A DNA stretch of 64,000 bases from NCBI GenBank assembly GCA_963700145.1, contig OY969474.1:1216001-1280000 (forward strand), written 5' to 3'. Below, piece by piece: positions 8,362 to 58,678 of this stretch. A program made the position numbers and the translations under genes. Below the pieces are notes generated by a model. It worked only from the letters and a program-made list of their open reading frames with translations. It was not told where the DNA came from and did not search any database. The stretch is from an uncultured Acidobacteriota bacterium. Its GTDB lineage: Bacteria > Acidobacteriota > Thermoanaerobaculia > Multivoradales > UBA5704. Within the stretch, counting starts at the first letter, position 1. Each line of letters opens with the position of its first letter.

Positions 8362-8401
8362 GGATGCATAGTCATTTCGCCATGCAGCTGCCTTCGAGCT
8401 C

Positions 8402-9076: not shown

Positions 9077-9079
9077 GGC

Positions 9080-12392: not shown

Positions 12393-12403
12393 CGGACCAC
12401 TTT

Positions 12404-12431
12404 GCGGAGCCCGGAGAATGGGCTCCGCTAC
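12404..12431 (-). repeat. Single GTAG-type REP-like palindrome
   Basis: Reverse strand reads GTAG-CGGAGCCC-ATTCTCC-GGGCTCCG, just downstream of the phosphoesterase stop. Confidence 0.55.
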
Positions 12432-12525
12432 CCGCAGGGTCGCCGGCCGGAGCCGGCGGTTGATCCGCGGGTTCGAGCGCAGGAATCGGATGGCGGGGCG
12501 CCCGCGGCTGGCGTAGCCTGGCGCC

Positions 12526-13578
12526 ATGTTGGAGCACGCGACGATCGACCCCGAAACCGCCTGGACGGCCGTCCTCGCCCGCGACGCGGGGCGCGACGGG
12601 AGCTTCGTCTACGCCGTTGCCTCGACCGGGATCTACTGCCGCCCTTCGTGCCCGTCGCGGCGGCCGCGGCGGCCGCAGGTCGCCTTCTTCCCGACGCCAG
12701 ACGCCGCCGAGGGCGCCGGCTACCGCGCCTGCCGCCGCTGCCGGCCGCGCGAGGCTGCGGCCGGCGCCGCCGCGGTGGCGCGCGCCTGCGCCTGGATCGA
12801 CGCCCATCCCGACGAGCCGGTGTCTCTCGCCGAGCTGGCGCGCGCCGTGGGGCTCTCGCCGGCGCACCTGCAGCGCACTTTCCGCCGGGCGACCGGCGTC
12901 ACCCCGAAGCAGTACGCCGACGCGCGCCGCCTGGCGCGTCTCAAGGACCGACTCCAGAAAGGAGACGACGTGACCACCGCCCTCTACGACGCCGGCTACG
13001 GCTCGAGCAGCCGCCTCTACGAGCGCTCCGACGCGCGCCTCGGCATGACCCCCGCCACCTACCGCCGCGGCGGCCGCGGCATGCGCATCCGTTTCGCCTG
13101 CGCCGACTCGCCGGCCGGGCGCCTCCTCGTCGCCGCCACCGAGCGCGGCCTCTGTGCCGTGCAGCTCGGGGAGGACGACGACGCCCTCGAAGCGGCGCTG
13201 CGCCGCGAGTTCCCGGAGGCCGAGATCGCCGCCGACGCCGCCGGGCTCGGCGCCCTGGTCGCCGCGGTTTTGGCGCGCCTCGACGCCGGCCCCTCACCCG
13301 CCCTGCCGCTCGACGTCCGCGCCACCGCCTTCGAGCAGCGCGTCTGGGCGGCGCTCCAGGAGATCCCGCCCGGCACGACCCGCACCTACGGCGAGGTGGC
13401 CGCGTCCCTCGGCCGCCCGGGCGCCGCCCGCGCCGTGGCCCGCGCCTGCGCCGCCAACCCGGTGGCCCTGGTGGTGCCCTGCCACCGCGTGGTGCGCGGC
13501 GACGGCGGCCTCGGCGGCTACCGCTGGGGGGAGGAGCGGAAGCGGCGTCTCCTGGCGCGCGAGCGGCGGGCGTTGTAG
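12526..13578 (+). CDS. ada: Bifunctional transcriptional activator / O6-methylguanine-DNA methyltransferase Ada
   Basis: STGIYCRPSC and YRACRRC Zn site, AraC HTH, VPCHRVV active site. Confidence 0.96.
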   Translation: MLEHATIDPETAWTAVLARDAGRDGSFVYAVASTGIYCRPSCPSRRPRRPQVAFFPTPDAAEGAGYRACRRCRPREAAAGAAAVARACAWIDAHPDEPVSLAELARAVGLSPAHLQRTFRRATGVTPKQYADARRLARLKDRLQKGDDVTTALYDAGYGSSSRLYERSDARLGMTPATYRRGGRGMRIRFACADSPAGRLLVAATERGLCAVQLGEDDDALEAALRREFPEAEIAADAAGLGALVAAVLARLDAGPSPALPLDVRATAFEQRVWAALQEIPPGTTRTYGEVAASLGRPGAARAVARACAANPVALVVPCHRVVRGDGGLGGYRWGEERKRRLLARERRAL

Positions 13579-13691
13579 GACGGGCACCGACGGCGGCTCG
13601 GCGGACTTACCGACAGCGATCTCCGCCCTCCGCCGATGAGCGAGGCACCGGTGCGCACCTACAGTGCGGTCAGCCAAGAGGAGACCAAGCC

Positions 13692-14708
13692 ATGATGACC
13701 GCGCAAGCCGCCACCGTTGCCCGCCTGCCGAACCCAGCGCCGCCAGCACCGCTCGCCGCCGCGCGCGGCAGCAGCGTCGAGGTGAGCCTCTTCGAGGGGC
13801 CGCCCATCTGCGGCTCGGTCGGCCTCTTCAACCCGCGCTCCCCGCAGTTCCTGATCCACCGCAACGGCACCGACATACGGGCGCGGCAGGTGGTGCCCTT
13901 CGAGCGCGTGCGGCACGTCGCCTTCCTGGGGAACCCGCCGCCCGACGGCATGACGATCTCCGCCGCCTACCGCGTGGTGCGGCTCCGCCTGCTGGATGGC
14001 ACGGAGGTCGAGGGCCTCTCCCATAGCTGGGGCGGGCTGCGCCAGGGGATCTTCCTCCGTCCGATCGGCCGGCGCGGGGTCGAGCGCCTCTACGTGCCGG
14101 CTTCCGCCGTCAGCGAGGTGGCCGCGGTCCAGGACCTCGGCACGCTCCTCGGCGGCCGCAAGTTCGCGACGATGGAGATGGTGGAGGCGGCGCTCGCCGA
14201 GCAGCGGGCGCTCGCCGCGGCGCGGCCAAGGCCTGTGCCGGCGCCGCCGCCGGCGAAGGCCGGCTCGGCGCGCACCGCCGTCCGCCTCGGCGAGATCCTG
14301 GTCTCGCAGGGCGCCATCACGCTGCAGGAGCTCGGGCACGCGCTCGCGGCGCAGGCCGGCCGCGCCGGCCGGCGGCTCGGCGAGCTGCTCGTCGAGCTGG
14401 GGATCGCCAGCCACAAGATGGTGGCGATCGGCCTCGCGGCGCAGCACGGCATCCCCTACCTCACCCTGCGCGGCCATCCGGTCGATCCGGCCCTGCGCAA
14501 CGTTCTCCCCGCCGAGCTGGCGCGCCGCTACCAGGCGATGCCGGTGCAGCACGCGGCGGGGCAGCTCACCGTGGCGGTCGCCGATCCGGGCGAGCCGGCC
14601 TTCGCGGCCGCCCTGCGCGCCGCCACCGGTCTCGCCATCACCCCGGCGGTGGCAACGCCGCAGGACATCGCGGGCGCCATCCGCGAGCTCTACGGAGCGG
14701 CCCAATGA
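13692..14708 (+). CDS. Stand-alone MshEN (GspE/PilB N-terminal) domain protein, putative c-di-GMP receptor
   Basis: ATG at 13692 after AGGAG; RLGEILVSQGAITLQELGHALAAQ and RLGELLVELGIA motifs, then a T2SSE_N-like fold; stops with no ATPase domain. Confidence 0.8.
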   Translation: MMTAQAATVARLPNPAPPAPLAAARGSSVEVSLFEGPPICGSVGLFNPRSPQFLIHRNGTDIRARQVVPFERVRHVAFLGNPPPDGMTISAAYRVVRLRLLDGTEVEGLSHSWGGLRQGIFLRPIGRRGVERLYVPASAVSEVAAVQDLGTLLGGRKFATMEMVEAALAEQRALAAARPRPVPAPPPAKAGSARTAVRLGEILVSQGAITLQELGHALAAQAGRAGRRLGELLVELGIASHKMVAIGLAAQHGIPYLTLRGHPVDPALRNVLPAELARRYQAMPVQHAAGQLTVAVADPGEPAFAAALRAATGLAITPAVATPQDIAGAIRELYGAAQ

Positions 14709-14717
14709 GCGCCCCGG

Positions 14718-15485
14718 TCATGCCGCCCCGGCGAACAGGCGGAAGAAGTTGGCGGTCGTGCGGGACGCCACCGCCGCGGGCGTCTCGCCGGTCTCCCGCG
14801 CCAGCCGCTCGGCCACCTCCGCGACGTACTCCGGGCGGTTGGGCCGGCCGCGGTAGGGCACCGGCGCGAGGTAGGGCGTGTCGGTCTCGACGAGGACGCG
14901 GTCGGCCGGGACGAGCGGGATCAGCTCGCGCACGTTCGCCGCCTTGGGGAAGGTGATCATCCCGGAGAACCCGAAGTAAAAACCACGCACCACCAGCTCT
15001 TCGGCCATCGCGGGGCCGCCGGCGAAGGAGTGGAAGTCGGCGGCCAGCCCGGCGAAGGCCGGGTCGCGCACCAGCTCCAGCATCGCGGCGTCGCTCTCCC
15101 GGTTGTGGACGACGACCGGCAGCCCGAGCCCGAGCGCCAGCTCCCACTGCGCGCGCAGCACCCGCTCCTGGACGTCGCGCGGCGCGTGGTCGTAGTGGAA
15201 GTCGAGCCCGCACTCCCCCACCGCCACCGCGCGCGGGTCGGCGAGCAGGCCGGCGAGCCGCCGCTCGTCGCCGTCGCGCCAGCCGGACGCCTCGTGCGGG
15301 TGGACACCTAGCGCGCACCAGACGTCCGGGTGGCGGTGGCAGAAGGCGAGCAGGTCCTCGGCCTCGTCGAGGCGCGTCGCCGGCACCAGGAAGCCGCCGA
15401 CCCCGCGCTCCCGTGCCGCGTCGAGCGCCGACTCGCGCTCGTCGGGCGGCAAGGACTGCAGGTGGCAGTGCGAGTCGACGAGCAT
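14718..15485 (-). CDS. tatD: TatD family metal-dependent hydrolase/DNase
   Basis: DSHCHL, GVHPH, VGECGLD, HNRE and VETDTPYL motifs; downstream of metG. Confidence 0.93.
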   Translation of the reverse strand: MLVDSHCHLQSLPPDERESALDAARERGVGGFLVPATRLDEAEDLLAFCHRHPDVWCALGVHPHEASGWRDGDERRLAGLLADPRAVAVGECGLDFHYDHAPRDVQERVLRAQWELALGLGLPVVVHNRESDAAMLELVRDPAFAGLAADFHSFAGGPAMAEELVVRGFYFGFSGMITFPKAANVRELIPLVPADRVLVETDTPYLAPVPYRGRPNRPEYVAEVAERLARETGETPAAVASRTTANFFRLFAGAA

Positions 15486-15496
15486 CCAGCCGGGCG

Positions 15497-17419
15497 CTAC
15501 TTCACCCGCGTCCCGTTCGGCACCGGCGCCGCCGGGTGGAGCAGGACCGGCGTGCCGCCGTCGGAGGCGGCGAGCACCATCCCCTGCGACTCCACCCCCA
15601 TGAGCTTCGCCGGCTGCAGGTTGGCGACGAGCACGACCTGCTTGCCCACCAGCTCCTCGGGCGTGTACTGCTTGCCGATGCCGGCGACGACGGTGCGCGG
15701 CTCCTCGCCGAGGTCGACCGCCAGCTTGATCAGCTTGTCCGACTTCGGCACCCGCTCGGCGGCGGTGACGGTCCCCACCTTCAGCTCGACGTCGGCGAAC
15801 TGGTCGATCGTGATCATGCGCCGCTCCTCGCGGGGTTTCTCGTTGGCCTCAGGGGCCGTGGGCGCCGCGCCCTCGGCGAAGTACGCCGCCTTGTCGATGC
15901 GCGGGAAGAGCGGCTGCGGCTCCGGCAGCGGCGCACCGGTGGGTGTCCCGCCCCACGCCAGGGCGTCGAGCCGCGCTGGCGGCGCCGCCGTGCCGACGCC
16001 CGCCAGCACCCGCGGCGCGGTCTCGGGCATGAACGGCAGGAGGCCCGTCGCCACGATGCGCGTCGCCTCGAGGCCGTTCCAGAGGACGCGCGACAGGCGC
16101 TCGCTCCCCGGCTCGCTCTTGACCAGCTTCCAGGGCTCGCGCTCGACGATGTACTGGTTGGCCTCGGCGAGGAGGCGCCAGAGGGCTTCGAGCGCGCGCT
16201 GGAAGGCCAGCTCCTCCATCGCCGTGCGGTAGTCGGCCGCGGCGCGGGCGGCGGCGGCGATCAGGGGGTTGTCGTCGCAGGGCGTCGGCGGAGTCTTGCC
16301 GTCGAAGGCGCGGCGCGACAGCGTCACCACGCGGCTCACCGTGTTCCCCAGGTCGTTCGCCAGGTCGCTGTTGTAGCGGTCCACGAACGCCTCGTCGGAG
16401 AAGCTCGCGTCCTGGCCGAAGACCATCTCGCGCAGCAGGAAGTAGCGCAGCGGATCGACCCCGAAGCGCGCCACCAGCTCGTTCGGGCGCACGACGTTGC
16501 CCGAGGACTTCGAGACCTTGCGCCCGTGGAGCTGCCACCAGCCGTGCGCCCAGACCGTCGTCGGCGGCGGCAGGCCGGCCGAGAGCAGGAAGGCCGGCCA
16601 GTAGACGGCGTGGAAGCGCAGGATGTCCTTGCCCACCAGGTTGAGGCGGGTGTCGGCCCCCTCCCAGTAGCGGCGGTAGCGCTCGGCCTCGGCGCCGTCG
16701 CGCCCGAAGCCCAGGGCCGTGACGTAGTTGGAAAGCGCGTCGAGCCAGACGTAGACGGTGTGCCCCGGCCGGCCGGGGAAGGGGATCCCCCACTCGAGAC
16801 CGGTGCGCGACACCGACAGGTCGCGCAGCCCGGACTCGACGAAAGCGCGCACCTCGTTGCGCCGCGCCGGCGGGAGGACCGCCTCGGGGTGCGCGTCGTA
16901 CCAGTCGAGGAGCGGCTGCTGGTACTTGGAAAGCCGGAAGAAGACGTTCTCCTCCGACTTCCACTCGACCGGCGTCTCGTGCACCGGGCAGCGGTTGCCG
17001 GGGAGCAGCTCCTTCTCGGTGTAGAAAGTCTCGCAGGGGACGCAGTACCAGCCCGCGTGCGCGGCGGTGTAGAGATCGCCGGCGGCGTCGAGGCGCCGCA
17101 CCAGCTCCTCGACGCCGATGCGATGGCGCTCTTCGGTCGTGCGGATGAAGTCGTCGTGGCTGATGCCGTACTCGCGCCAGAGCCGCTGCACGTGCTCGGC
17201 CACCCAGTCGGCCTGCGCCTGCGGCGCGATCCCCTTCTCGCGCGCCGCGCGCTCGATCTTCTGGCCGTGCTCGTCGGTGCCGGTGAGGAAGAAGACGTCG
17301 TCGCCGGCCAGCCGGCGGTAGCGCGCCAGGGTGTCGGCCACCAGCGTCGTGTAGATGTGGCCGATGTGCGGCAGGTCGTTGACGTAGTAGATCGGGGTGG
17401 TGAGGTAGTAGACGGACAT
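15497..17419 (-). CDS. metG: Methionyl-tRNA synthetase with C-terminal tRNA-binding domain
   Basis: YLTTPIYYVNDLPHIGH (HIGH), TGTDEHGQKI, YVWLDAL, GKDILRFH, KVSKS; C-terminal ANLQPAKLMGVESQGM. Confidence 0.97.
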   Translation of the reverse strand: MSVYYLTTPIYYVNDLPHIGHIYTTLVADTLARYRRLAGDDVFFLTGTDEHGQKIERAAREKGIAPQAQADWVAEHVQRLWREYGISHDDFIRTTEERHRIGVEELVRRLDAAGDLYTAAHAGWYCVPCETFYTEKELLPGNRCPVHETPVEWKSEENVFFRLSKYQQPLLDWYDAHPEAVLPPARRNEVRAFVESGLRDLSVSRTGLEWGIPFPGRPGHTVYVWLDALSNYVTALGFGRDGAEAERYRRYWEGADTRLNLVGKDILRFHAVYWPAFLLSAGLPPPTTVWAHGWWQLHGRKVSKSSGNVVRPNELVARFGVDPLRYFLLREMVFGQDASFSDEAFVDRYNSDLANDLGNTVSRVVTLSRRAFDGKTPPTPCDDNPLIAAAARAAADYRTAMEELAFQRALEALWRLLAEANQYIVEREPWKLVKSEPGSERLSRVLWNGLEATRIVATGLLPFMPETAPRVLAGVGTAAPPARLDALAWGGTPTGAPLPEPQPLFPRIDKAAYFAEGAAPTAPEANEKPREERRMITIDQFADVELKVGTVTAAERVPKSDKLIKLAVDLGEEPRTVVAGIGKQYTPEELVGKQVVLVANLQPAKLMGVESQGMVLAASDGGTPVLLHPAAPVPNGTRVK

Positions 17420-47273: not shown

Positions 47274-47723
47274 TCAACCGGGTGGGAGCGATTCGAGCTG
47301 CTCGATGTCTGCGAGGTCTTGGAGCCTGCCGGTGGTCCGTTTGTTCTGGATTAGGTGGCGGCGGGACAAGACGGCGGCAGGCTGGCCGGCGAACGTGGTC
47401 TCGACACGCTCCGCCCAAGCCTCCGCGAACTCGACGCCGTCGATTGAGGTCAGGACGTCGATCCGCACGGGGGGCAGTCCAACCTGGAAGATCAGACCGG
47501 GCTGCGTCAGGTCGTGCGCGACCAAGTCCTGTAGGGGGGCGCCGAAAGAGCCGAGCGCATCCAGCACCTTCGAAGCATTGCCGGGCGATGGGTTCACCCA
47601 GACGTCAAGGTCCTTCGTGGCGCGGACGTGTCCATGAGCGGCGAGCGCATGCGCTCCCACGACCAGATACTCAACGCCCGCGGCGTTGAACTCGGCTAAC
47701 AGATCTCTGAAGTCGGGGTTCAT
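47274..47723 (-). CDS. Minimal nucleotidyltransferase (DUF6036-like)
   Basis: YLVVGAHALAAHGHVRATKDLDVWV, RIDVLT and NKRTTGRLQDLAD motifs. Confidence 0.85.
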   Translation of the reverse strand: MNPDFRDLLAEFNAAGVEYLVVGAHALAAHGHVRATKDLDVWVNPSPGNASKVLDALGSFGAPLQDLVAHDLTQPGLIFQVGLPPVRIDVLTSIDGVEFAEAWAERVETTFAGQPAAVLSRRHLIQNKRTTGRLQDLADIEQLESLPPG

Positions 47724-47889
47724 CGCCGCCGTCGCTGTGCCACCCCATGCACGCTTTCGTCAACGTCCAGACACCTTCGATGCGCTCTGCCGGCGCGAGC
47801 ACCAGCCAGTCGCGGTCCCGCGGGACAGGCTCTCCTGCTCGGATCACACGGGAGGTGATCAACCGCTGCCGCTGACTTCGGGTACTCAC
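47671..47889 (-). CDS. Small partner protein of the nucleotidyltransferase (putative antitoxin-like)
   Basis: PAERIEGVWTLT...DEPRLQRSV overlaps the MNT start; TAGAAT lies 7 nt before the GTG at 47889. Confidence 0.65.
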   Translation of the reverse strand: MSTRSQRQRLITSRVIRAGEPVPRDRDWLVLAPAERIEGVWTLTKACMGWHSDGGDEPRLQRSVSRVQRRGR

Positions 47890-47963
47890 AGTCGCTATTC
47901 TATCACCGTGTACCGTGTACGAGGTGACATGCATACGAGGCCAATATATTTACTGTGAGTAGC

Positions 47964-49481
47964 TCAAGACTTTTCGGCGGCCAACCGACCTTCCAGCCAG
48001 ATGACTTCGCGTCGCCGACGGCCGTAGCCGCATGCCTCAATCAGATCGCGCGCGCGGGTAAGATGCCTGCTAGCCGTCCTCTTGTCCCCTTGTTGGAGGC
48101 GGGTGCGGGTCCACTCAAGTTGAGCATCGGCTTCAAAAAGGCGCATCTGGCCCCGCTCGGCGATCTCTCCGACCTCGCGGAGATCGCCGGCAGCAGCGGC
48201 CAGATCACCTTGGAGGCGGCGGAGCGCGGCACGCGCAAGGAGGCCCCGGGGAAGCTCATCTTGCTGACCAGCTTGCCGAAGTCCCTCGATCGCTCGGTTT
48301 AGGTACTCGTCGGCCAGGTAGAGCTCCGCCAAGTCGACAGTTAGACCCAGGCCCAGATAGGCACGGCCTAACGTGAGGTGGTAAAGAGCGATATCAAGGA
48401 GCCAGTTCATCGACATGATCTGGCCCAACGTTCGCTGTGCCCGATCGCGGGCCTCTTCACAGGCCTTTTGGTATCGCGCGCGCGACTGATCGTTGCTATT
48501 TATATCGTCTAGCCCTGAACCGTCCTCCGGCTCAGAGCTTCCCAAGAGCAAATCGCAATAGCGAAAGCCCTGCACTGAATGAAGAAGGAGATCCCCAGGC
48601 TGTTGTTGCGAGTGCAGAACCTCCGCCTCCCGGAAGAGAGACCCACTTTCCTTTAGCTTGCCCTCTTGGTGAGCAACATCGGCCAGAACCGTCCGGCTGA
48701 CCACCCTTGCGAACAAATCTCCTGAGCGATCAGCCAGCTCGACACTTTGCCTTCCAGCCTCAACAGCTTCTGCGATCTGGCCGAAGGTCAAGAGTAGCTC
48801 GCACAAATTGCTCGCAGCGCGTGCCGCTTCCGGCCAGCGTGCTTCCTCAATCCGGAGCGCTAGTCCCGCCCGAAGCGGCTGGCCGGCTTCCTGCAGTCTG
48901 CCAAGGGCGCGCAGGATGAATCCAGCCTCGTTTAGTAAGAAGGCCTGAGCCGACGGGGACAGTCGGGGAGAGAGTTGGTTCCAGGGCCGTTCGAAGAAAG
49001 CGGCGAGTGCTGCCAGCTCGACACCAAACGCACCGAGCGTCCTCAGACTAAAACCTTCATTGCCGCGCCGAATTCGCCGTAGGAAAATGTTCTCCAGTAC
49101 CTCTTGCTCTCGGCCAGCCTTGCATCCATGAACGACCGCCGCATAAAGTGGCAGAAGCAGCTCAAGCGTGTCTGGATACTCTTGTGAGGTCTGCCGGTAG
49201 TGCTCGTAAAGTCGCTCATGTCCCAGACGCCAAGCCTCTGGGGCCTCCTCTCGAAGCCGTTTCCCGAAGTGCTCCCGTACGAGAGGATGGGTATCGATCG
49301 GAGCGTTCACGTCACCGGACGCCTCGATCGTTACCAGATGCGCACTTCGAAGCCGCGACAAAGCTTTGCGCCAATCTTGTTCGTCGTTCAAGCCGATCCC
49401 ATCAGTGAGCCCCGAGATGGAAGGGGGGATGCCCCGTTCCCTGTTGAAAGCCGAAAGAGGGAAAGCGGCTCGGTTGATCAT
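47964..49481 (-). pseudogene. C-terminal half (helical/TPR) of the IS-interrupted STAND NTPase gene
   Basis: IDTHPLVREHF, AVVHGC and repeated TPR-like helices; native sequence resumes at 49424. Confidence 0.85.
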
Positions 49482-50883
49482 GCCACGGCCTTGGTGTTCG
49501 TCGGTTCCTCGATCGCCGCGAGCGCGAGCTCGAGAGCCCCGAGGTGCCGATGTCCCTTGACACGCCGGAAGCCAGCCTCCGCGTCACACAGCGCCAGGGC
49601 GACCCAGCGCAGCACCATGTCGCCGCCGCGCCAGCGCTTGACGTTGCGCGTCGTCGTACGGATCGAGCCGATCGTGTTCTCGATCGCGTTGGTCGAGGCG
49701 AGCAACCGGCGCAGAGCGTCGGGCAGCTTCAGCCGCAAGGCGGTGAGGGTCTCGTCGAGGCCCTCGCGCAGGCTGCCCGCGGCGCCCGCGTGGCCTGCGT
49801 GCTCGAGCCAGCGGGCAAGCTGCTCGAGGCGACGCTTGGCGAGGTCGAAGCGAGCGCTCTGGTAGGCCTCGACCATCAGGCGGTCGACCCGGGCTTGGAG
49901 CTGCTTGGGCAGGTGGTCGCGGACGTTGCGGCGCTTGTGGAGCTGGCAGCGCTGGACGTGGGTTGCGTCCCCGAAGACGGCGCGCACGGCCTTGCGCAGC
50001 CCCTTGCCGCCGTCGAGCACCGCCAAGAAGCGCGGCGGCATCGCGAGGCCTCGCTCCAACAGCTCCTGGAGCAGGCCGGTACAGAGCGCCGCGTTCTCCG
50101 TCGCGCCTTCACGCAGGCCGAGCACCCGCTTGGTCCCGTCGCGCGCGATGCCGAGTGCCACCACCAGGGTGTGGCCGGCCACCTCCAGCCCGTCGATCAT
50201 CAGGATCAGGGGCTGGAAGTCCGACAGGTCTCGGCGCAGCCACGCGCCCAGCAGACGACGCGTCCCCGCCACCAGCCGGCGCTGGACCGCACTCTTGCTC
50301 GTCGCGCGCTCCGGCACCGACTCTGCGAGCGGCTCCAAGCTCCGACCGTAGCGGCGCTGCGAGACGCCGACCAGCGCCTGCTCGATCACCCGCTCCGTGA
50401 AGGGATCTTCGTCCTGAAAGGCGCGCACCGAAGGCAAGCTCATCTCGCCACCGTCGCGTCGCCGGACGCGCGGTCGCGGCAGCGCCACCTGGCGGCCACC
50501 CAGCACGAACTCGCTCGCCGTCGAGCCCCAGCGGTACGCCTCGCGGGTCGGATTGCGCCGACGCTTCGGACCGACGACGGCCTCGACCTCGTCCGCGAGC
50601 TGCCGCCCCAGGGCCTCGACGCCCGCGGCGTGAAACAGCTCCAGCAGCCCCTGGCGGCTGGCCTCGATGCCCTCGACCATCGGCCGCAGCAGCGCTTGTA
50701 GCCCGTGGCTGATGCGCGCCGCACGGCCCCCTTGCCACACCACCCGCCTTTCTGCTCTCGTCTTCATCACGGCTCCTTGGCCCCCTGGCGGGGCCGGTTA
50801 TTCGACCAACCCGATTCTCGATCAGGTGGGCCGAGGAGCCGCCTTCACCTCATTGCTCTTTCAACAGCGGGAGGGACAACCCC
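49425..50883 (-). mobile_element. IS256-family insertion sequence, 1459 bp
   Basis: Imperfect 26-bp terminal IRs (GGGGATGCCCCGTTCCCTGTTGAAAG / rc GGGGTTGTCCCTCCCGCTGTTGAAAG); 8-bp target duplication ATGGAAGG at 49417-49424 and 50884-50891. Confidence 0.95.
49478..50770 (-). CDS. IS256 (mutator) family DDE transposase
   Basis: RPRVR, LMIDG, VLDGGKGL, QRCQLHKRRN and STNAIE motifs. Confidence 0.95.
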   Translation of the reverse strand: MMKTRAERRVVWQGGRAARISHGLQALLRPMVEGIEASRQGLLELFHAAGVEALGRQLADEVEAVVGPKRRRNPTREAYRWGSTASEFVLGGRQVALPRPRVRRRDGGEMSLPSVRAFQDEDPFTERVIEQALVGVSQRRYGRSLEPLAESVPERATSKSAVQRRLVAGTRRLLGAWLRRDLSDFQPLILMIDGLEVAGHTLVVALGIARDGTKRVLGLREGATENAALCTGLLQELLERGLAMPPRFLAVLDGGKGLRKAVRAVFGDATHVQRCQLHKRRNVRDHLPKQLQARVDRLMVEAYQSARFDLAKRRLEQLARWLEHAGHAGAAGSLREGLDETLTALRLKLPDALRRLLASTNAIENTIGSIRTTTRNVKRWRGGDMVLRWVALALCDAEAGFRRVKGHRHLGALELALAAIEEPTNTKAVA

Positions 50884-52073
50884 ATGGAAGGTGGCATCCG
50901 CAGGGCAGTGAGCGCCGCTGCCTCAGCCGCGCGATCGAATAGTCCTAGGAGATACAGCACCTCGATCTCTGAGCCCGGCCCGAGCCACATCTCGTATGAG
51001 GTCAATACGCTGTGTGCGTGGTCTTCTCCCTCAATCTCTTCATCCAGAAGTGAAACCTCATGCCGCCGGCGCACGTCACCGCCGCAAACATCCCGCAGAT
51101 AGCTTCCTAGGAGCGTTAGTGCCAAGGCGTGACCACCAAACTCCTTCGCCGTCTGTCTCAGTTCCACCTCTGTACCTATAACCCCGAGGCGCTGTAGCAG
51201 TTCAGCCCCGGCGCTTTCCGGTAGCGCCTCCAGGGTAATTTGTACCACTCCCGCTCTTCCGAGGATATCGCTCACCGAAAGCCGACTCGTGATCAGGCAC
51301 AGGCCGGAATTGGAGGCTGCAAGGTCACGCACCAGTGCCGCGATGGCAGGGTCCTTAAGTCGCCCAGTCTGGACACCAGGCGGGTGCTGGAGGGGCTCAA
51401 GGCCATCGAGGATTAGCAGAGTTCGCCTCTCGCGCACAAGCTCTGCGAGCCTCGCGCCCTTTTCCCAGGGCGAGGGGCTCGGGGTACTCTCGTTCCCCAA
51501 CCAACCCAAGGCGTAATCGACGAACGCGTCTCCTGATGCACCGGCCGTATCCATTCCCTGGCTATAGAAGGACCACCCTAGGATACGCTCGGCATCCCGC
51601 CAGCCTTCGGCACCGAGGCGATCGAGCCAATGATTAACCAGCGCTGACTTCCCCATACCGCCGACCGCAACCAGAACCGCGACATTCACACCCGGGTCGT
51701 TCCATGCCGTATCTAAATGATTGAGCTCTTCCTCTCGGTCGACAAAGGCAACTCCCGATACTGGCAATCTGGCAATCGATACACGAGGCTCGTACCGTTG
51801 GGGTTGTCCCTCCAGGGGCAAAATAAAAGGATTGTGATACTCATCTGAGGCCCTAAAGAGCCAATCGCCGATCTCGCGGGCCGTCCATTGAAGATCTTCA
51901 CGGTCGGCCAGGTCGCTCACATAGCGACCAGCCGCTATGACTTGAGCGAACAAAGTCCTCAATTTTGCAGTTGAGTCCTCGCCAGTCGCATTATCCTCCG
52001 ACGAGAATTTGATCTGCTGCCATAAGCCCTGTAGTTCCCTTGCCGAAAGATGGGCCATTCCTATTTCATCCAT
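50850..52073 (-). pseudogene. N-terminal half of the STAND (NB-ARC/NACHT-like) NTPase gene, interrupted by IS256
   Basis: FVDREEEL, GGMGKS (Walker A), LLILDGLE (Walker B), LITSR and GGHALAL motifs; rejoins the C-terminal half in frame when the IS and one target copy are removed. Confidence 0.88.
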
Positions 52074-53052
52074 GCTCGTCGAAGAACTTCTCAAGCATAC
52101 CGTCAGCGATCACTAAAGCTTGGTGATACCAACTGACCATCCATTCGATCAGCAAGACAGCGCTCGCAGTGTAGGCATCGAAACGTTGAGCCGCTAGAGC
52201 ATCCCGCATTACATCCAGGCAAATCCAAGTACCTAGAAGGAAGTCAAGAAACTCCAGAGACCCAGTTGTTCTCATGACAGCTTCTAACTCGTCAACAATC
52301 CTTCGAAGATCGCTGTCCGATGTGCTAAGAATTCTTCTTGCCGAGTCTCGAGTAGCCACATTTCGGTGCCTTTTGTAGATCTGGAAGGCTTCCTCAAGGA
52401 CTCTTGCGCGCGAGAACATCTGCTCTGCGAGTTTGTGTACGGCCTTCCAACTTCGACCATCTCGTCTGGTCCGTTCAACCTCTGCCGCCGAGATCCCAGG
52501 AACCCTAGATGAAAATACGCTCTGGGCCCCCCTGGAATCGGTAATACGAACCTCGGATCCTCGAAACAAAATGGAGAAAGATCGATGGTCAGGTAGATAG
52601 TCCGCGAAATATCTATTGATAATCGTTGGGTAGTTCCAAAGCTCCTCTAGAAGGTCTTCCCAAGCCCAGACTGAGACCGGGAAGGACCCGCGCTCCACTT
52701 GGATGCCGCTAATCTCACGCACAAACTCTTGGACGGAGACGCTGCGTGGCGCTGTGGTAGCTACCGTTAGCTTTCTGAGCCCTGGTTGGAAACGCAGAGC
52801 AGCATGGACCTCGTCTTCAACCTCTTGCCTATCGAGCTGTTTTCCTTTGCTCTTGGCTTTGCATTGCACGCCTTCCCATTGAGGCCCTCGGTCAGGCTGG
52901 CCAAAAATGTCGACACCCCTCTGAGCCTCGCCCTGCCGACCGTGTTTTTGTGCACCTGGATCGCTCCACATCCGTCTAAACAGGTCGCAGCAGAGATCCT
53001 CGAAATCCTGCCAGCGATCCGGCGGAGGCAGAGCGACCTTTAGCGGGGGCAT
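52066..53052 (-). CDS. Mrr-like PD-(D/E)xK restriction-endonuclease-fold protein with unknown helical C-terminus
   Basis: WQDFEDLC...GRQGEAQRGVDI...GVQCK motif; overlaps the STAND start; AT-richer than the backbone. Confidence 0.8.
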   Translation of the reverse strand: MPPLKVALPPPDRWQDFEDLCCDLFRRMWSDPGAQKHGRQGEAQRGVDIFGQPDRGPQWEGVQCKAKSKGKQLDRQEVEDEVHAALRFQPGLRKLTVATTAPRSVSVQEFVREISGIQVERGSFPVSVWAWEDLLEELWNYPTIINRYFADYLPDHRSFSILFRGSEVRITDSRGAQSVFSSRVPGISAAEVERTRRDGRSWKAVHKLAEQMFSRARVLEEAFQIYKRHRNVATRDSARRILSTSDSDLRRIVDELEAVMRTTGSLEFLDFLLGTWICLDVMRDALAAQRFDAYTASAVLLIEWMVSWYHQALVIADGMLEKFFDEHG

Positions 53053-53158
53053 AGGCTCGTAGTTCGCAGATCTCGGTATCGCTACTGAGAACCTGATTCT
53101 CCGTCGGGGAAAGGCTCTGATGCAACTTAGGACTTGAGCGCGCCTCTTCGACGCTTCG

Positions 53159-54472
53159 CTAGGTGGGCTCAACTGGGAAAGAGGCACCATCCGCCAGAAT
53201 CATTTTCAGCATCGCGATGTTGTCGCGGTGGCCGGTCAGCTTGGCGGTGACCTTGCCGCGGATCGGATAGCCCAGGAGATAGAAGTCGCCGAGGATGTCG
53301 AGGATCTTGTGGCGGGCGAACTCGTCGGGGAAGCGGAGCTCGGTGTTGACGATCTCGTCCTCGCCGACCAGGATGAAGTTGTCGAGCCGCCCGCCGGAGC
53401 CCAGCCCCAGCTCGTTCATCATCTTGAGGTCCTTCAGAAAGCCGAAGGTGCGGGCCGGCGCGATCTCCTCCTGGTAGCGGGCGAAGTCGGTGAGCGTGAA
53501 GTCGTAGCGCTGCTCCCCGACCGGCGGCGGGTAGCGCAGCTCGTAGGAGACCGCGAAGCCGTCGTAGGGCTCGAGCACCAAGCTCTTGCCGCCCGCGCCG
53601 CCGACCTCGTAGCGCCGGTCGATCACGATCTCCTGCCGCGGCGCGTCCTGGTCGACCACGCCGACCTCGTCGAGCACGCGGCAGAACTCCAGCGCCGAGC
53701 CGTCGAGGACCGGCAGCTCGCCGTGCACCTTGACCAGCAGGTTTCCCACCCCGGCGGCGTGGAGGGCGGAGAGGAAGTGCTCCACCGTGCGCACGCTCTC
53801 GCCGTCGGTCGAGAGCGTCGTGGCGTAGTCGGTGTCGGCGACGGCGCGGACGTGCGCCGGGATCTCCGCCCCGGCCGGCAGGGTCACGAAGTGGACGCCG
53901 GTGTCGGGCGGCAGCGGCTGGATGACCATGCCGGTGCGCCCGCCGGAGTGGAGGCCCAGGCCGTAGATCACCGTGCTGTGGCGAATGGTGCGCTGCGGCC
54001 GGTCGCTGGTGCGCAGCAGCGCCAGCGGCGGCGGCGGCTCGAGCTGCCGCTCCTCGGCGCGCGACGGCCCGGCCGGCGCCGGCAGCGCCGCCTCGCCGCC
54101 CAGGCTGCGCTTCATCGCCAGCGCGCCGGCCACGGCGTCCACGGCGCGCCGGTACGAGAGCGGCTTCTCGAGATAGTCGAAGGCGCCCATCTTGATCGCC
54201 TTGACCGCGGTCGCCGTGGTGCCGTGTCCCGACATCATGACGACCGCCGCCGCCGGGTCGGACTCGCGCAGCGCCTGCAGGGTCTCGAGCCCGTCGCGGT
54301 CGGCCAGCCAGACGTCGAGGAAGACCACGTCCGGCCGCGCCTCGGCGTAGAGCCGGAGCGCGTCGGCGCCGCTGCGCGTGGCGAGGGTGCGGTACCCCTC
54401 GTCGGCGAGGATCCCCGACAGGGTGGTCAGGATCCCCGGCTCGTCGTCGACGATCAGCACCAGGTCGCTCAT
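53159..54472 (-). CDS. lpxC: Response-regulator receiver domain fused to UDP-3-O-acyl-GlcNAc deacetylase LpxC
   Basis: REC motifs LIVDDE, VFLDVWL, MMSGHG and LEKP; LpxC motifs QRTI, GLGLHSG, TVEHFLSAL, ELPVLDGSA, IAPARTFGF, HKILDILGD and GH. Confidence 0.93.
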   Translation of the reverse strand: MSDLVLIVDDEPGILTTLSGILADEGYRTLATRSGADALRLYAEARPDVVFLDVWLADRDGLETLQALRESDPAAAVVMMSGHGTTATAVKAIKMGAFDYLEKPLSYRRAVDAVAGALAMKRSLGGEAALPAPAGPSRAEERQLEPPPPLALLRTSDRPQRTIRHSTVIYGLGLHSGGRTGMVIQPLPPDTGVHFVTLPAGAEIPAHVRAVADTDYATTLSTDGESVRTVEHFLSALHAAGVGNLLVKVHGELPVLDGSALEFCRVLDEVGVVDQDAPRQEIVIDRRYEVGGAGGKSLVLEPYDGFAVSYELRYPPPVGEQRYDFTLTDFARYQEEIAPARTFGFLKDLKMMNELGLGSGGRLDNFILVGEDEIVNTELRFPDEFARHKILDILGDFYLLGYPIRGKVTAKLTGHRDNIAMLKMILADGASFPVEPT

Positions 54473-54496: not shown

Positions 54497-55948
54497 CTAC
54501 CGCCCGGCGGGTGGCGGGTCCGCCGGCGGCTGGCCGAGACGCGCCTCCATCTCGGCCGCGGCGTAGGCCACGACCGCCCAGGCGGCGACGTTCTGGTCGA
54601 GGTCGCGCGCCGAGACGTGCGCCAGCGTGTCGTTCGGCGAGTGGTGGACGTCGAAGTAGAAGGTGCCGTCCTGGGCGAGCGAGACGATCGGCACCCGCGC
54701 CGGACGGATGGGGATCAAGTCGGCGCCGCCGCTCGCCGTGTTGTTGCCGCGGCCGACGCCGAGCGGCTCGAGGAGGGCGGCGATCTCGTCCATCGCCGGC
54801 AGCGACTCGGCGGCGATGCGCGAGGAGAGCTCGTAGACGCGCCCCGAGCCGAAGTCGGACTCGCCGGCCAGGACGTGCTGCGGCAGCGCCGCCGCGTGCG
54901 CCGCGGCGTAGGCGTTGGCGCCCGAGAGCCCGAACTCCTCGTTGGCGTAGAGGACGACGCGCACCGTGCGCCGCGGCGGGCGCGGCAGCTGGGCGATGCG
55001 GCGCGCCGCCTCGACGACGATGCCGCAGCCGGCGGCGTCGTCCTCGGCGCCGGTGCCGAGGTCCCAGGAGTCGAGGTGGCAGGCGAGGAGGACGATCTCC
55101 TCCGGCCGCTCCCGCCCGACGACCTCGCCGATGACGTTGGCTGACGGCTCGGGCGGCAGCTCGCGGCTGCGCAGGACCAGGTGGAAGCGCACCGGCCTAC
55201 CACTCGCCAGCGCCGCCTGGAGGAGGTCGGCGTCGGGGTTGGAGAGCGCCGCGGCGGCGATGCGCGGCACGCCCTCCTCGTAGCGGGTGGCGCCGGTGTG
55301 CGGCAGGCGGTCGTCGGAGGTGCCGACCGAGCGGATCAGGAGCGCGACGGCGCCGAGCTTGGCGGCGCGCGACGGCCCGGCGCCGCGCATCCCGACGGTG
55401 CGGCCGTAGCCGGCGCCGTCGCGCCGGCGCGCCATGCGCGGCGAAAGGAAAACAATCTTGCCGCGCGCCCGCTCGCCCAGGGCGTCGAGCGCTTCGAGCG
55501 AGACGGCCTCGACGACCTCGGCCTCGATCCCCGTCTCCGGCGTCGCGACGCTGCCGCCGAGGGCGGCGAGCACTACCGGCTGGACGAAGGGAGCGAGGAT
55601 GCTGCCTTCGATCGTGCCGCGCTCCCAGTGTGGCACCGTGACCGGCTCGGCGCGGACGTTTTCGAAGCCCAGGCCGCGCAGAGTGCGCAGCCCCCACTGG
55701 ACGGCGGCCTTGTCCCCCGGCGAGCCGGCGAGGCGCGGCCCGACCTCGGTGGTCAGCGAGCGGACGATCTCGTAGGCGCCGGTCCCCTGCAGCGCGCCGT
55801 CGCGCAGGGCGGCGGCGGTGGCATGGACCTCGGGCGAGAGGGAAACGGGAGCGGCCGGGGCGGTGTCCGCGGCGGTTGGGGCCTGGGCGGCCAGCAGGCC
55901 GGCGACCGCCAGGGCGAGCCCCGCGAGGAGGCCGGCGACGAGCCTCAC
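54497..55948 (-). CDS. M28 family metallopeptidase (carboxypeptidase Q-like), secreted
   Basis: VGPRLAGS, HLDSWDLGTGAEDD, ANEEFG, GESD and HHSPNDT motifs; GTG start at 55948. Confidence 0.92.
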   Translation of the reverse strand: MRLVAGLLAGLALAVAGLLAAQAPTAADTAPAAPVSLSPEVHATAAALRDGALQGTGAYEIVRSLTTEVGPRLAGSPGDKAAVQWGLRTLRGLGFENVRAEPVTVPHWERGTIEGSILAPFVQPVVLAALGGSVATPETGIEAEVVEAVSLEALDALGERARGKIVFLSPRMARRRDGAGYGRTVGMRGAGPSRAAKLGAVALLIRSVGTSDDRLPHTGATRYEEGVPRIAAAALSNPDADLLQAALASGRPVRFHLVLRSRELPPEPSANVIGEVVGRERPEEIVLLACHLDSWDLGTGAEDDAAGCGIVVEAARRIAQLPRPPRRTVRVVLYANEEFGLSGANAYAAAHAAALPQHVLAGESDFGSGRVYELSSRIAAESLPAMDEIAALLEPLGVGRGNNTASGGADLIPIRPARVPIVSLAQDGTFYFDVHHSPNDTLAHVSARDLDQNVAAWAVVAYAAAEMEARLGQPPADPPPAGR

Positions 55949-55956
55949 GGGCCGAA

Positions 55957-57084
55957 TTACGCGGGGAGCGCCTCGGCGGAGCGGAGCTGCTCGAGGACCA
56001 GCCGCCACTCCTGGAGGGCCTGCTCGACCGCGCGATGGCAGGCGAGGACGCCTTCGTCCACCTCCGCCGCGAGCGCGCCGCGGGCGCGGCGCTGCAGCGT
56101 CAGCAGCTCCTGGAGGCGCGCCTGGACGGCGGCGTGGGCGTCGTGCAGCCGCCGCTCCTGCGCCTGCCGCAGCTCGCCGACGCGCTGCGCCAGCCGTTCG
56201 CGCGCGTGATCGAACTGCACGCTGACGCGGGCCCGCAGCAGCAGGGCGTCCGGGGCGCGGCGCAGCTCGCGCGCCAGCCCCAGCTTCGAGAGCGCGAAGA
56301 TCACCCACTTCGCCGGGTCGAAGTGCCAGGGCTTGACGCCGTTGCGGTAGTCGAAGGGGAAGCTGTGATGGAAGTTGTGATAGCCCTCGCCGAGCGCCAG
56401 GACCGCCATCACCGCGCTGTCGCGGGCGCTGTGCTCGCGGCTGTAGGGCTGGCGGCCGATCATGTGGCAGAGGCTGTTGATGAAGAAGGTGGCGTGATGG
56501 CTGGCCACGATGCGCGCCACGCCGCCGATCAGCAGGCAGCCCAGGACCCGTCCCGTCGCCAGCCCCACCACCAGGGGGATGCCGAAGGACAGGCCGAAGC
56601 CGATCACGCGGTTCCAGCGGTCTTGCCAGAGGACCAGGGGGTCGTCCTGGAGGTCGCGCACGACGTTGAGGCTCGGCGGCTCGTGGTGGAAGAAGACCCA
56701 CCCCATGTGCGCCCACCAGAACCCCTTCTGGATGTTGTAGGGGTCGCGGTCGTGGTCGGTGTGCGAATGGTGGACGCGGTGGTCGGCCGACCAGCGGAGG
56801 GCCGAGTTCTCGAGCGCCGCGGCGCCGAAGACCAGGAAGAAGAGGCGCACCGGCCAGGCGGCGCGGTAGGTGCGGTGGCTGAAGAGGCGGTGGTAGCCGG
56901 CGGTCACCGAGACGCCGATGACCAGCCAGAGGACGGCGAAGGTGATGGTCTCCGGCCAGCCGAGCCCGACCTTGACGATGTACCAGGGCACACCGACCAG
57001 GGTGACGGCGAGCGTGCCGAGGAGGAAGAGCGTGTTGACGAGGTCGAGGCGGTTTTCGATGCTTTGGTCCACTGTTTGGTCCAC
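55957..57084 (-). CDS. Acyl-CoA (Delta-9) fatty acid desaturase
   Basis: His boxes HRLFSH, HRVHH and HNFHH; GFWWAHMGW and DYRNG motifs. Confidence 0.94.
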   Translation of the reverse strand: MDQTVDQSIENRLDLVNTLFLLGTLAVTLVGVPWYIVKVGLGWPETITFAVLWLVIGVSVTAGYHRLFSHRTYRAAWPVRLFFLVFGAAALENSALRWSADHRVHHSHTDHDRDPYNIQKGFWWAHMGWVFFHHEPPSLNVVRDLQDDPLVLWQDRWNRVIGFGLSFGIPLVVGLATGRVLGCLLIGGVARIVASHHATFFINSLCHMIGRQPYSREHSARDSAVMAVLALGEGYHNFHHSFPFDYRNGVKPWHFDPAKWVIFALSKLGLARELRRAPDALLLRARVSVQFDHARERLAQRVGELRQAQERRLHDAHAAVQARLQELLTLQRRARGALAAEVDEGVLACHRAVEQALQEWRLVLEQLRSAEALPA

Positions 57085-57222
57085 TAGGAGGGGCCCCCGG
57101 ATTGTTCTTGCTTGCAAGGCGGACGCCGCGATTGTAGCGGAAATGCTTCCCCGCCGCCCCGCGTTGAGAGAGACTGAGCTTTCCGTAGACCTGAACCGGG
57201 ACCCTAGAGGAGAGATTCCCCC

Positions 57223-57636
57223 ATGAGCACCCCGCACCGCTTCCGCCCCCTCGCCGCCGCCTTCTGCCTGGCAGCGCTCGCCGCCGCCGGCGCCGCCATG
57301 GCCGGCGAGGCCAAGCCCGGCAAGGCCGAGAAGGAGGCCGCGCCGGCCCTCCACCGCGTCGAGACCAAGAAGGTCTGCATGGTCAACGACCAGGTCTTCG
57401 AGCGCGACCAGATCCCGGTCGCGGTCGACGGTAAGACCTATTACGGCTGCTGCGCCATGTGCAAGGAGCGGCTGTCCAAGGACGCCGAGGCGCGCACCGG
57501 CGTCGATCCGTTGACCCAGAAGAAGGTGGACAAGGCCACGGCCGTCATCGCGGCGCGCGAAGACGGCAGCGTCCTCTACTTCGAGAGCGAGAAGACCTAC
57601 ACCGAGTACCTGAAAAAGCTCGAGAAGGGGGGCTGA
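57223..57636 (+). CDS. Secreted YHS/TRASH-like metal-binding protein
   Basis: Signal peptide; VCMVND, GKTYYGCCAMC, VDPLT and LYFESE motifs. Confidence 0.82.
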   Translation: MSTPHRFRPLAAAFCLAALAAAGAAMAGEAKPGKAEKEAAPALHRVETKKVCMVNDQVFERDQIPVAVDGKTYYGCCAMCKERLSKDAEARTGVDPLTQKKVDKATAVIAAREDGSVLYFESEKTYTEYLKKLEKGG

Positions 57637-57647
57637 GCCGGGCCTTC

Positions 57648-57663
57648 TGGCCCCCGTCTTGCA
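57648..57663 (+). promoter_or_regulatory. Sigma54 (-24/-12) promoter
   Basis: TGGCCC-CCGTC-TTGCA upstream of the gene at 57737. Confidence 0.6.
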
Positions 57664-57736
57664 ACCTGCATCTCCTGGCGCGAGGGGGAAGTCTCCACCT
57701 CGTCGACAAAGCACTGACAGCCAAGGAGATGCAGCC

Positions 57737-58678
57737 ATGAAGAGCACCCATCGCATCGCCGCCGCGGCCCTCGCGCTCGCCCTGCTCGGGGCGGGCGGGG
57801 CCGCCGCGGATCACAAGAAGGACACCGTAGCCGCCAAGCAGCTCGCCGGCACCGTCGGCGCCAAGGTCATCGCTCTGCAGACCTGGGTCGAGAACCTGAC
57901 CGCCGGCGCGGAGTCCCGTTACGGCATCCACCCGACCAACGAGCCGATCCCGGTCAACGTCGGCGACCGCGTGCGGGTGCGCCTGGTGGGGACGGCGATC
58001 GAAGGCGACGGCGACGGCGTCGAGATCCCGATCCACGCCCGCTTCTCCGAGGCCTCGGGCACCAGCCGCCTCGACATCCTCGAGCGCGGTCCGAACTGGG
58101 TCGTGGTGCGGATCGGCGACCGCGACCGCCTGCGCAACGACGACCGCGCCCAGCTGGCCTTCGAGGTCACCGGCCGCTACGACCTGCGCAACAACCTCGA
58201 GAGCGGCCGCATCACCTTCGACCTCGGCGGCCGCGGCGGCTCCTCGCTCGGCTTGAGCCAGGGGGCGACCGACCGCGAGCGCCTGCGGGAGTCCGAGCGG
58301 CTGACGGCGTTGCTCTACGACGCCCTCCTGCTGGAGGACACCTCCAGCCTGCGGCGCGACACCGACTTCAACGCCGGCGTCGACCGGATCTACCGCGACG
58401 GTTACGAGGCGGTCATCGAGGTGGCACTCGACCTCGCCCGCCAGGCGCAGGAGCGCAGCGTCTTCCGCGGCCACTCGGCGCAAGAGGTCGTGGCGCACCT
58501 CTACCGGGTGCTCCTCGGCCGCAGCGGCAGCGTCAGCCAGCTCGCCTCGGACCCCGGCTTCGTCGCCAACGTGCGCCAGCTGGAGCGGGGCCGGCTCTAC
58601 GACCTGGTCGAGACGGTCGTCCGCTCCGAGGAGTTCCACCGGAACCACAACCTGACCGGCTTCACGCGCCTCCGCTAA
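57737..58678 (+). CDS. Secreted hypothetical protein with C-terminal DUF4214/phycobilisome-linker-like repeat
   Basis: AAGGAG SD; signal peptide; VAHLYRVLLGR...VVRSEEF. Confidence 0.75.
   Translation: MKSTHRIAAAALALALLGAGGAAADHKKDTVAAKQLAGTVGAKVIALQTWVENLTAGAESRYGIHPTNEPIPVNVGDRVRVRLVGTAIEGDGDGVEIPIHARFSEASGTSRLDILERGPNWVVVRIGDRDRLRNDDRAQLAFEVTGRYDLRNNLESGRITFDLGGRGGSSLGLSQGATDRERLRESERLTALLYDALLLEDTSSLRRDTDFNAGVDRIYRDGYEAVIEVALDLARQAQERSVFRGHSAQEVVAHLYRVLLGRSGSVSQLASDPGFVANVRQLERGRLYDLVETVVRSEEFHRNHNLTGFTRLR

Follow-up and report, generated by a model that had tools for sequence, protein, structure and literature searches.

The stretch of DNA analysed here, 64,000 nucleotides (nt) from an uncultured Acidobacteriota bacterium (Thermoanaerobaculia; Multivoradales; UBA5704; contig OY969474.1 of assembly GCA_963700145.1, positions 1,216,001 to 1,280,000; hereafter the window), carries a gene in which the receiver (REC) domain of a response regulator is joined in one reading frame to LpxC, the deacetylase of lipid A synthesis. 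Judged by its sequence, the fusion protein is part of a distinct, multi-phylum LpxC subfamily with an NtrX/NtrC-type regulator N-terminus. New here is what accompanies the fusion elsewhere in the genomes: relatives with a separate lpxC gene keep a cluster of sigma-54-type promoter, lpxC, DUF4390 gene, kinase gene and regulator gene, and the 26 fusion-bearing genomes examined have DUF4390 and the kinase but neither lpxC nor the regulator at that place. As the best explanation, which we consider somewhat better than an even bet, the DUF4390/NtrY-like kinase would phosphorylate the REC domain of the fusion, altering LpxC itself rather than lpxC transcription.

The original prediction, made from the letters of the window, had described an intact NtrX/NtrC-like receiver, a Pro/Ala linker and a complete LpxC in one open reading frame (ORF), and all the residues that it named were found by Pfam, NCBIfam and alignment. 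Pfam recognises Response_reg at 98 bits (cut-off 30.2; E 4.8e-28) and, over profile positions 1-267 of 268, LpxC at 272 bits (cut-off 27; E 6.1e-81). The NCBIfam lpxC equivalog TIGR00325 passes its cut-off of 187 with 231 bits, and the top-scoring NCBIfam REC models for the receiver are NtrX, AtoC and NtrC. The aligned receiver has the acidic pair D9 and D10, the phospho-acceptor D53 (codon 54314-54316), S81, Y100, K103 and P104. In the LpxC domain, whose closest solved chain is Pseudomonas LpxC 5u39 (E 3e-52), alignment to solved LpxC identifies H232, H388 and D392 as the Zn ligands and E231 and H415 as the catalytic pair, with T342, F343, K389 and D396 likewise in place. In E. coli numbering, the Zn and catalytic residues of LpxC are E78, H79, H238, D242 and H265. 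A review of LpxC names E78, T191 and H265 as key E. coli residues (PMC13333357). Neither the sigma-54 AAA+ domain with its GAFTGA motif nor the HTH_8 domain of bacterial enhancer-binding proteins is present in the fusion protein according to Pfam, which also detects no AAA+ or HTH remnant in linker residues 119-159; the protein is a descendant of the NtrC/NtrX-type sigma-54 activator family and not a member of it. The AlphaFold model (69 sequences, mean pLDDT 86.8) comprises a (beta-alpha)5 receiver, a long alpha-5 helix spanning residues 107-124 and the LpxC fold, with linker residues 126-141 disordered (pLDDT <50). A prediction of the complex between REC (1-122) and LpxC (156-437) scored 0.00 and is uninformative either way.

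The host is a soil bacterium whose closed genome is in one contig of 5,455,767 bases (95% complete). Exactly one LpxC match is found in it, the fusion gene, with no second lpxC beside it, and LpxB and LpxK are encoded as well. Since LpxB and LpxK are present and the fusion is the sole LpxC, the lipid A pathway exists and depends on the fusion protein; on the same grounds we infer that the fusion has UDP-3-O-acyl-GlcNAc deacetylase activity. A search of 5.8 billion proteins returned both Pfam domains in all 120 best relatives (72-99% identity), which carry source names of Thermoanaerobaculia or Acidobacteriota and are annotated simply as LpxC. Moreover, two separate soil-metagenome studies each supply a single contig (2681 and 2510 nt) that spans 53191/53208-54798 unbroken. 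The two objections that the original prediction had raised against itself, an assembly chimera and a fusion confined to this contig, do not hold: one-frame fusions occur in 33 of 41 genomes of the order, metagenome contigs of two studies bridge the gene, all 120 best relatives have both domains, and 23 of 301 genomes sampled across the phylum carry the fusion. RNA data set X20 holds three short contigs, including one clean 154-nt piece within the REC domain, which is too little to claim transcription.

Spread and ancestry of the fused LpxC subfamily

Besides the 33 genomes of the order with a full-length fusion, G017 has the fusion divided over two contig ends, and G008 carries both the fusion and a separate LpxC. 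In four genomes, G013, G022, G027 and G031, the sole LpxC is a separate one of 37-41% identity, and fragments of that type occur in G014. No LpxC was found by protein query or with Pfam PF03331 in G019 (96% complete) and G036 (94% complete); both keep the DUF4390-kinase locus, and the LpxC gap is either an assembly gap or a real loss. The 23 carriers in the even phylum sample, all with full-length fusions, are the host and six more of the order, three from other families of the class, four from two families elsewhere and nine from one family at 43-48% identity. The other sampled genomes have an ordinary LpxC or, in 12 cases, no match at 1e-30; the tally of 301 includes three unpublished genomes (G063, G088 and G189), all with ordinary LpxC, on which nothing else rests.

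The larger family was surveyed among 1.84 billion cluster representatives (50% identity), with Pfam run on 48 of the best 150. These 48 proteins comprise 21 short REC-LpxC forms (412-505 amino acids (aa), 30-49% identical to the window protein), 15 long forms, one intermediate form, six N-terminally cut long forms and five LpxC-FabZ proteins. The long forms (650-736 aa) have REC, sigma-54 AAA+, AAA lid and sometimes HTH_8 ahead of LpxC, and the intermediate form, P0141, has REC, HTH_8 and LpxC. Assemblies with long forms are titled Deltaproteobacteria, Thermodesulfobacteriota, Nitrospirae or "bacterium", a range beyond Acidobacteriota that is read from few record titles. The spread of the Response_reg plus LpxC architecture, left to be established by the original prediction, thus takes in 37 cluster representatives, other phyla included, in addition to the order and the phylum sample. 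A locus search with the short-form alignment added, among the matches listed, at least one further full-length short form (L126) and at least one long form (L127).

Across this family, the residues for phosphorylation and for catalysis are conserved. D53 is kept in 20 of the 21 short representatives and in 15 of the 16 long or intermediate ones; D10, S81 and K103 are kept in all 21 short representatives and in 15, 14 and 15, respectively, of the 16, where the other two have Thr at S81. All 37 representatives retain the catalytic residues of LpxC, apart from a single T-to-S change. The AAA+ domain of the long forms, however, is decayed, with GAFTGA, the Walker-B DE and the FRxDLxxR arginine finger each found in none of 15 representatives and Walker A in 13.

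An unrooted LpxC tree of 115 rows, made by quick search, is divided by a branch with support 99 into 66 ordinary LpxCs, among them the four separate LpxCs of the order and the five FabZ fusions, and 49 rows on the fused side (21 short, 20 long, the intermediate, the window protein, two N-extended rows and four rows without REC). Truncated gene calls or secondary losses may account for the REC-less rows, P0162, P0177, P0188 and P0220. According to this tree, the fused LpxC does not descend from the order's own operon LpxC; it belongs to a separate subfamily that displaced the operon LpxC. Short and intermediate forms are nested within long clades (P0145, support 100; P0141 with P0148, 100; P0144, 94), indicating that the ATPase was lost more than once. 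A polarity from long to short is supported only locally in the unrooted tree, by these nested forms. A REC tree of 59 rows, also a quick search, is poorly resolved and does not distinguish descent from the local operon regulator from descent from the long forms. Five LpxC positions of the fusion (181, 240, 248, 264 and 368) carry residues shared by 80% or more of the fused clade and by at most 6% of ordinary LpxCs; at one of them, K248, the charge is reversed relative to the Glu/Asp of ordinary LpxC. These positions are candidates for contact with the receiver.

The lpxC operon of the relatives and the partnerless kinase

In the four genomes of the order with only a separate lpxC, the genes run YbjN, lpxC, DUF4390, NtrY-like kinase, regulator and then selB, with YqeY between regulator and selB in G013 and G022 and two inserted genes in G013; divergent FadL and GDSL genes adjoin the cluster in three of the four. 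The operon regulator consists of REC, sigma-54 AAA+ (227-241 bits) and HTH_8, and GAFTGA is present in both of those aligned (G031 and G013). In all four operons a sigma-54-type -24/-12 element (pattern TGGCAC-N5-TTGCW, at most two mismatches, GG and GC fixed; genome-wide background 0.009 per 150 nt) precedes the LpxC domain by 66-123 nt, and the scan found none upstream of the fusion. The remark in the original prediction that the gene is outside the usual ftsZ context is inapplicable: the ancestral context of lpxC in this order is YbjN-lpxC-DUF4390-kinase-regulator, and the fused gene lies elsewhere.

An NtrY-like kinase is matched in 40 of the 41 genomes of the order, and DUF4390 is present in all 30 kinase loci examined. 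Among these, only G022 and G027, the separate-lpxC genomes there, have lpxC before DUF4390 and REC after the kinase. The remaining 28 loci, from 26 fusion-bearing genomes plus G019 and G036, have neither lpxC nor REC beside the DUF4390-kinase pair, and flanks that extend far enough show the order YbjN, DUF4390, kinase, YqeY, selB (e.g., G038, L090); the downstream flank of G011 is too short to judge. Taken together, a separate lpxC comes with an adjacent regulator in 4 of 4 genomes, whereas all 26 fusion-bearing genomes examined lack the regulator there. Outside the order, the fusion-bearing genomes G081, G202 and G301 also have the DUF4390-kinase pair without the regulator. In G081, a second, weaker DUF4390-like match (locus L222, C9:3039000-3051000) has a kinase and an NtrC-type regulator with all its domains behind it, so that in this genome a complete system exists alongside the partnerless DUF4390-kinase pair.

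The original prediction had found no cognate kinase in the window, and Pfam detects no histidine kinase among the 16 ORFs scanned there (42.9-64 kb). The NtrY-like kinase elsewhere in the host genome is intact, with four transmembrane (hydrophobic) segments, HAMP, the H-box H403, and N and G boxes. No REC regulator stands beside the kinase in the host or in the other 25 fusion-bearing genomes examined, and no orthologue of the operon regulator was found in the host genome or in G038. The best NtrC-type match in the host, C1:972814-974148, has orthologues of 70-84% identity in all five genomes tested, four of which retain the operon regulator, and is thus a separate paralogue. This regulator (locus L080, G000:C1:966000-981000, positions 6791-9802) has an intact GSFTGA, adjoins an HtrA-like protease and has no kinase beside it in the host.

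The host kinase locus (L079, G000:C1:2150000-2169000) reads GDSL, FadL, YbjN, a Phd/PIN pair, the inverted DUF4390-kinase pair, a Ser/Thr kinase, baeRF, YqeY and selB. The Phd/PIN toxin-antitoxin pair (positions 7623-8352 of L079) occupies the place of the relatives' lpxC, and the genes for the Ser/Thr protein kinase and baeRF (release-factor-like), at 11804-15545, lie between the inverted pair and selB. The PAS domain has been lost from the NtrY-like kinase in four genera (G000; G009, G019, G010, G020, G038); others keep it, at about 740-800 aa.

In long forms, the link between such a kinase and LpxC is direct. At three of the five long-form loci examined (L023, L024 and L127), a DUF4390 gene (Pfam E 1e-22 to 1e-24), a kinase of NtrY_N-HAMP-PAS-HisKA-HATPase architecture and the long fusion follow one another, the genes abutting or overlapping.

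Receivers dock on their kinases through helix alpha-1 and the beta3-alpha3 loop. The window REC matches the lost operon regulator at 11.2/16 in alpha-1 and 8.8/11 in the loop, compared with 6.7/16 and 4.8/11 for the other NtrC-type paralogue and 8.2/16 and 5.2/11 for long-form RECs of other phyla. By these matches to the lost regulator, the fused REC fits the local kinase, and it may either have co-evolved with that kinase or derive from the REC of the local regulator. On the kinase side, identity to the host kinase over the 80 residues surrounding the phospho-His is 57-81% across the other genera of the order, and the stretch from the phospho-His onward is almost invariant; in the 80-residue region the kinases of separate-regulator genomes (68-81%) are no more divergent than those of fusion-bearing genomes.

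Surroundings of the fusion gene

The positions of the features are collected in Table 1. The M28 peptidase gene and the fusion are probably co-transcribed: scans found no sigma-70-like or sigma-54-like promoter element between them, and a sigma-70 promoter scan around the fusion gene likewise returned nothing. This peptidase neighbourhood is not kept in relatives. Further upstream, a 137-aa ORF at 57223-57636 (+) without a Pfam match overlaps the desaturase gene.

Table 1. Positions of the features discussed, in the window or, where marked G000, in the host genome
Feature	Position	Strand	Basis
REC-LpxC fusion gene, 437 aa, ATG start	53159..54472	-	open reading frame, Pfam, NCBIfam
Receiver (REC) domain, residues 5-114	54131..54460	-	Pfam Response_reg
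Pro/Ala-rich linker, residues 119-159	53996..54118	-	between Pfam domains
LpxC deacetylase domain, residues 160-426	53195..53995	-	Pfam, TIGR00325, alignment to solved LpxC
C-terminal tail and stop codon, strain-specific	53159..53191	-	comparison with close relatives
M28 peptidase gene, ends 24 nt before the fusion ATG	54497..55906	-	Pfam
Fatty-acid desaturase gene upstream of the M28 peptidase gene	55957-57756	-	Pfam
Low-G+C inserted island adjoining the 3' end of the fusion	47282..53190	.	G+C and comparison with relatives
TPR_MalT ORF in the island	47964-49481	-	Pfam
IS256/Mutator transposase in the island	49478-50770	-	Pfam
AAA_16 NTPase ORF in the island	50850-52094	-	Pfam
Mrr_cat nuclease-like ORF in the island	52066-53190	-	Pfam
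NtrY-like kinase, 611 aa, host genome	G000:C1:2158334-2160166		profile search
DUF4390 gene, host genome, 9-nt gap to kinase	about G000:C1:2160176-2161006		profile search

The island next to the fusion is 5.9 kb long, has a G+C fraction of 0.51-0.61 against about 0.73 around it, and is absent from the close relatives G004 and G001. Homology with these two breaks at 53191/53208 (blastn), and the C-termini differ from those of P0002-P0007. The tail of the fusion after about residue 428 is thus strain-specific, the island insertion having replaced the last few codons. The island may be a STAND-type defence gene split by an insertion sequence.

Candidate mechanism, alternatives and meaning

In the mechanism that we favour, the DUF4390/NtrY-like sensor would read an envelope or periplasmic signal, and its kinase would phosphorylate D53 of the fused REC domain. 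Phosphorylated REC would then change LpxC activity, and possibly stability, via dimerisation or domain packing, and lipid A flux would be set post-translationally instead of through lpxC transcription. The partnerless kinase at 2.158-2.160 Mb is the likely phosphodonor. That phosphorylation may gate lipopolysaccharide (LPS) synthesis, as the original prediction had it, is made more plausible by this candidate kinase outside the window and by the ancestral operon, which links a two-component system to lpxC. As to history, a DUF4390/NtrY-type system would at first have driven lpxC transcription via a sigma-54 activator; the activator would then have been fused to LpxC and its ATPase have decayed; and REC-linker-LpxC alone, often unlinked from the kinase, would be the last state, that of the window. 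In several lineages, the decayed ATPase and the HTH domain would have been deleted to leave REC-linker-LpxC. In the order of the host, the fusion would have replaced two genes of the older circuit, lpxC and the regulator, with the kinase and its periplasmic DUF4390 partner remaining at G000:C1:2158334-2161006. We give about even odds to the full proposal that a whole two-component circuit was short-circuited and that all three stages are preserved in living genomes.

Several observations weigh against phosphorylation of the fusion by this kinase. In the host genome the kinase lies 890 kb from the fusion, and 11 of 13 short-form loci have no kinase at a distance of up to 8 kb; nor is there any near the long-form loci L025 and L026 or the short-form locus L126. 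Two of the five fusion-bearing genomes beyond the order (G159 and G222) have no DUF4390. Overall REC identity to the lost regulator is 50% for the fusion and likewise 50% for the C1:972814-974148 regulator, and the REC tree does not place the fusion REC as sister of the operon regulator. The AlphaFold model (pTM 0.70) with its disordered linker fixes no domain arrangement, including a CheB-like packing of REC over the active site. Finally, both trees come from quick searches, and because the genomes share ancestry the counts do not stand for independent events.

Of the alternatives, the one that fares best, though still unlikely, holds that another donor, either another kinase or acetyl phosphate, phosphorylates the REC domain and that the NtrY-like kinase is kept for the C1:972814-974148 regulator. 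The separation of kinase and fusion speaks for it, as do the at least 24 kinase-like matches in the host genome and the fact that this regulator is itself partnerless, is conserved at 70-84% in both genome types and has a REC 50% identical to that of the lost one. However, the docking surface of the fusion is far closer to that of the lost regulator than the C1:972814-974148 regulator's is, loss of the operon regulator coincides with the fusion (26/26 versus 4/4 genomes), and long forms are encoded directly behind NtrY-like kinases.

It is less probable again that phosphorylation sets the amount of LpxC, with REC marking the enzyme conditionally for degradation or for an adaptor, in functional analogy to FtsH/LapB control. 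Proteolysis is the established control of LpxC in E. coli (PMC13333357), and the C-terminal tail of the fusion differs among strains. No LapB equivalog scores above cut-off in the host genome, a weak test, as PF18073 also matches Gram-positive control genomes and NF008757 gives TPR-level matches below cut-off. The sequence holds no sign of protease involvement, and the enzyme-linked receivers CheB and PleD act on activity; this alternative overlaps control of LpxC by the NtrY-like kinase and differs from it in the last step only.

We regard as improbable a REC domain that is a non-signalling relic, i.e., a phosphorylation-independent scaffold, dimerisation or solubility domain on a constitutive LpxC. 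Domain decay does occur in this family, as in the AAA+ domain of the long forms, and a kinase is adjacent in few short-form loci. But the phospho-Asp, the Mg-ligand acids, the Ser and the Lys are kept in 20-21 of 21 short representatives of only 30-50% identity, and conservation of these residues while the neighbouring AAA+ domain lost its motifs makes a relic unlikely. An assembly or annotation artefact, or a fusion unique to this contig, is ruled out by the genomes of relatives, with more than 100 independent assemblies, and by the bridging metagenome contigs from two studies.

Response regulators with an enzyme output include CheB (REC-methylesterase), PleD/WspR (REC-GGDEF) and RpfG (REC-HD-GYP). 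Like these, the fusion is a single protein in which a flexible linker joins REC to a catalytic domain. The analogy is likely functional too, in that phosphorylation would alter activity by way of domain packing or dimerisation; unlike theirs, its output is a core biosynthetic enzyme of an essential pathway and not a signalling enzyme. Another natural LpxC fusion, LpxC-FabZ (LpxC plus a FabA-like domain; five of the 48 proteins scanned), differs from REC-LpxC in being a C-terminal fusion to a pathway-neighbour enzyme and in standing on the ordinary-LpxC side of the tree.

On the signalling side, DUF4390/PlrP has been shown genetically to be the third component of PlrSR, an NtrYX-family system of Bordetella, and is reported always to colocalise with ntrYX homologues (PMC13001219). 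As in PlrP-PlrS-PlrR, the host and its relatives have DUF4390 adjoining an NtrY_N-HAMP-HisKA-HATPase kinase, and the REC of the fusion is NtrX/NtrC-like; unlike in that system, the regulator is without a DNA-binding or ATPase domain and has an enzyme as its output, with the kinase 890 kb away. PlrP and PlrS are known from proteobacteria, and LpxC is unmentioned in the retrieved sections of the PlrP paper (PMC13001219). Like NtrYX systems, the proposed circuit would be tied to the cell envelope and the LPS level (PMC7240162). The sign of control is hinted at only by analogy: when R. sphaeroides loses NtrYX, its lpxC mRNA rises 8.8-fold and its LPS doubles (PMC7240162). For the D. vulgaris NtrC-type regulator DVU2934, which is encoded together with the kinase DVU2931, a single target has been mapped, lpxC, and in S. 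fumaroxidans lpxC lies directly upstream of an operon orthologous to that of DVU2934 (PMC3333781). A two-component system dedicated to lpxC is common to these bacteria and, judged by gene order, to G013, G022, G027 and G031, which have the arrangement of S. fumaroxidans with a sigma-54-type promoter. Unlike DVU2931/DVU2934, which exert transcriptional control, the fusion has regulator and enzyme in one polypeptide.

Control of LpxC in E. coli proceeds through FtsH/LapB/YejM proteolysis, and the partners LapB and MurA have recently been found to modulate its activity (PMC13333357). These mechanisms use proteolysis adaptors or partners in trans, whereas here a phospho-receiver is fused in cis. 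The original prediction had supposed this mode of control to be uncharacterised, and our full-text literature searches found no description of a receiver-LpxC fusion. The retrieved sections of a 2026 review of LpxC control mention no receiver, two-component system or fusion, nor control by phosphorylation (PMC13333357), and in those of a preprint on domain combinations LpxC-FabA is the only LpxC fusion mentioned.

Lipid A synthesis has its essential, flux-controlling step in LpxC, which has long been a target for antibiotics. If the proposed mechanism is true, a receiver in cis on the sole LpxC, kept across several phyla, would add a direct signalling route to outer-membrane synthesis and could expose an allosteric surface of LpxC. 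LPS homeostasis would then have a further, new mode, and the fusion would be one of the few documented transcription factors to have become an allosteric module of their own target. The three-stage series makes the question testable, with a defined kinase, a defined phospho-acceptor and, as natural controls, relatives with separate genes. The fusion would also provide the DUF4390/NtrY sensors, about which little is understood, with a clear output.

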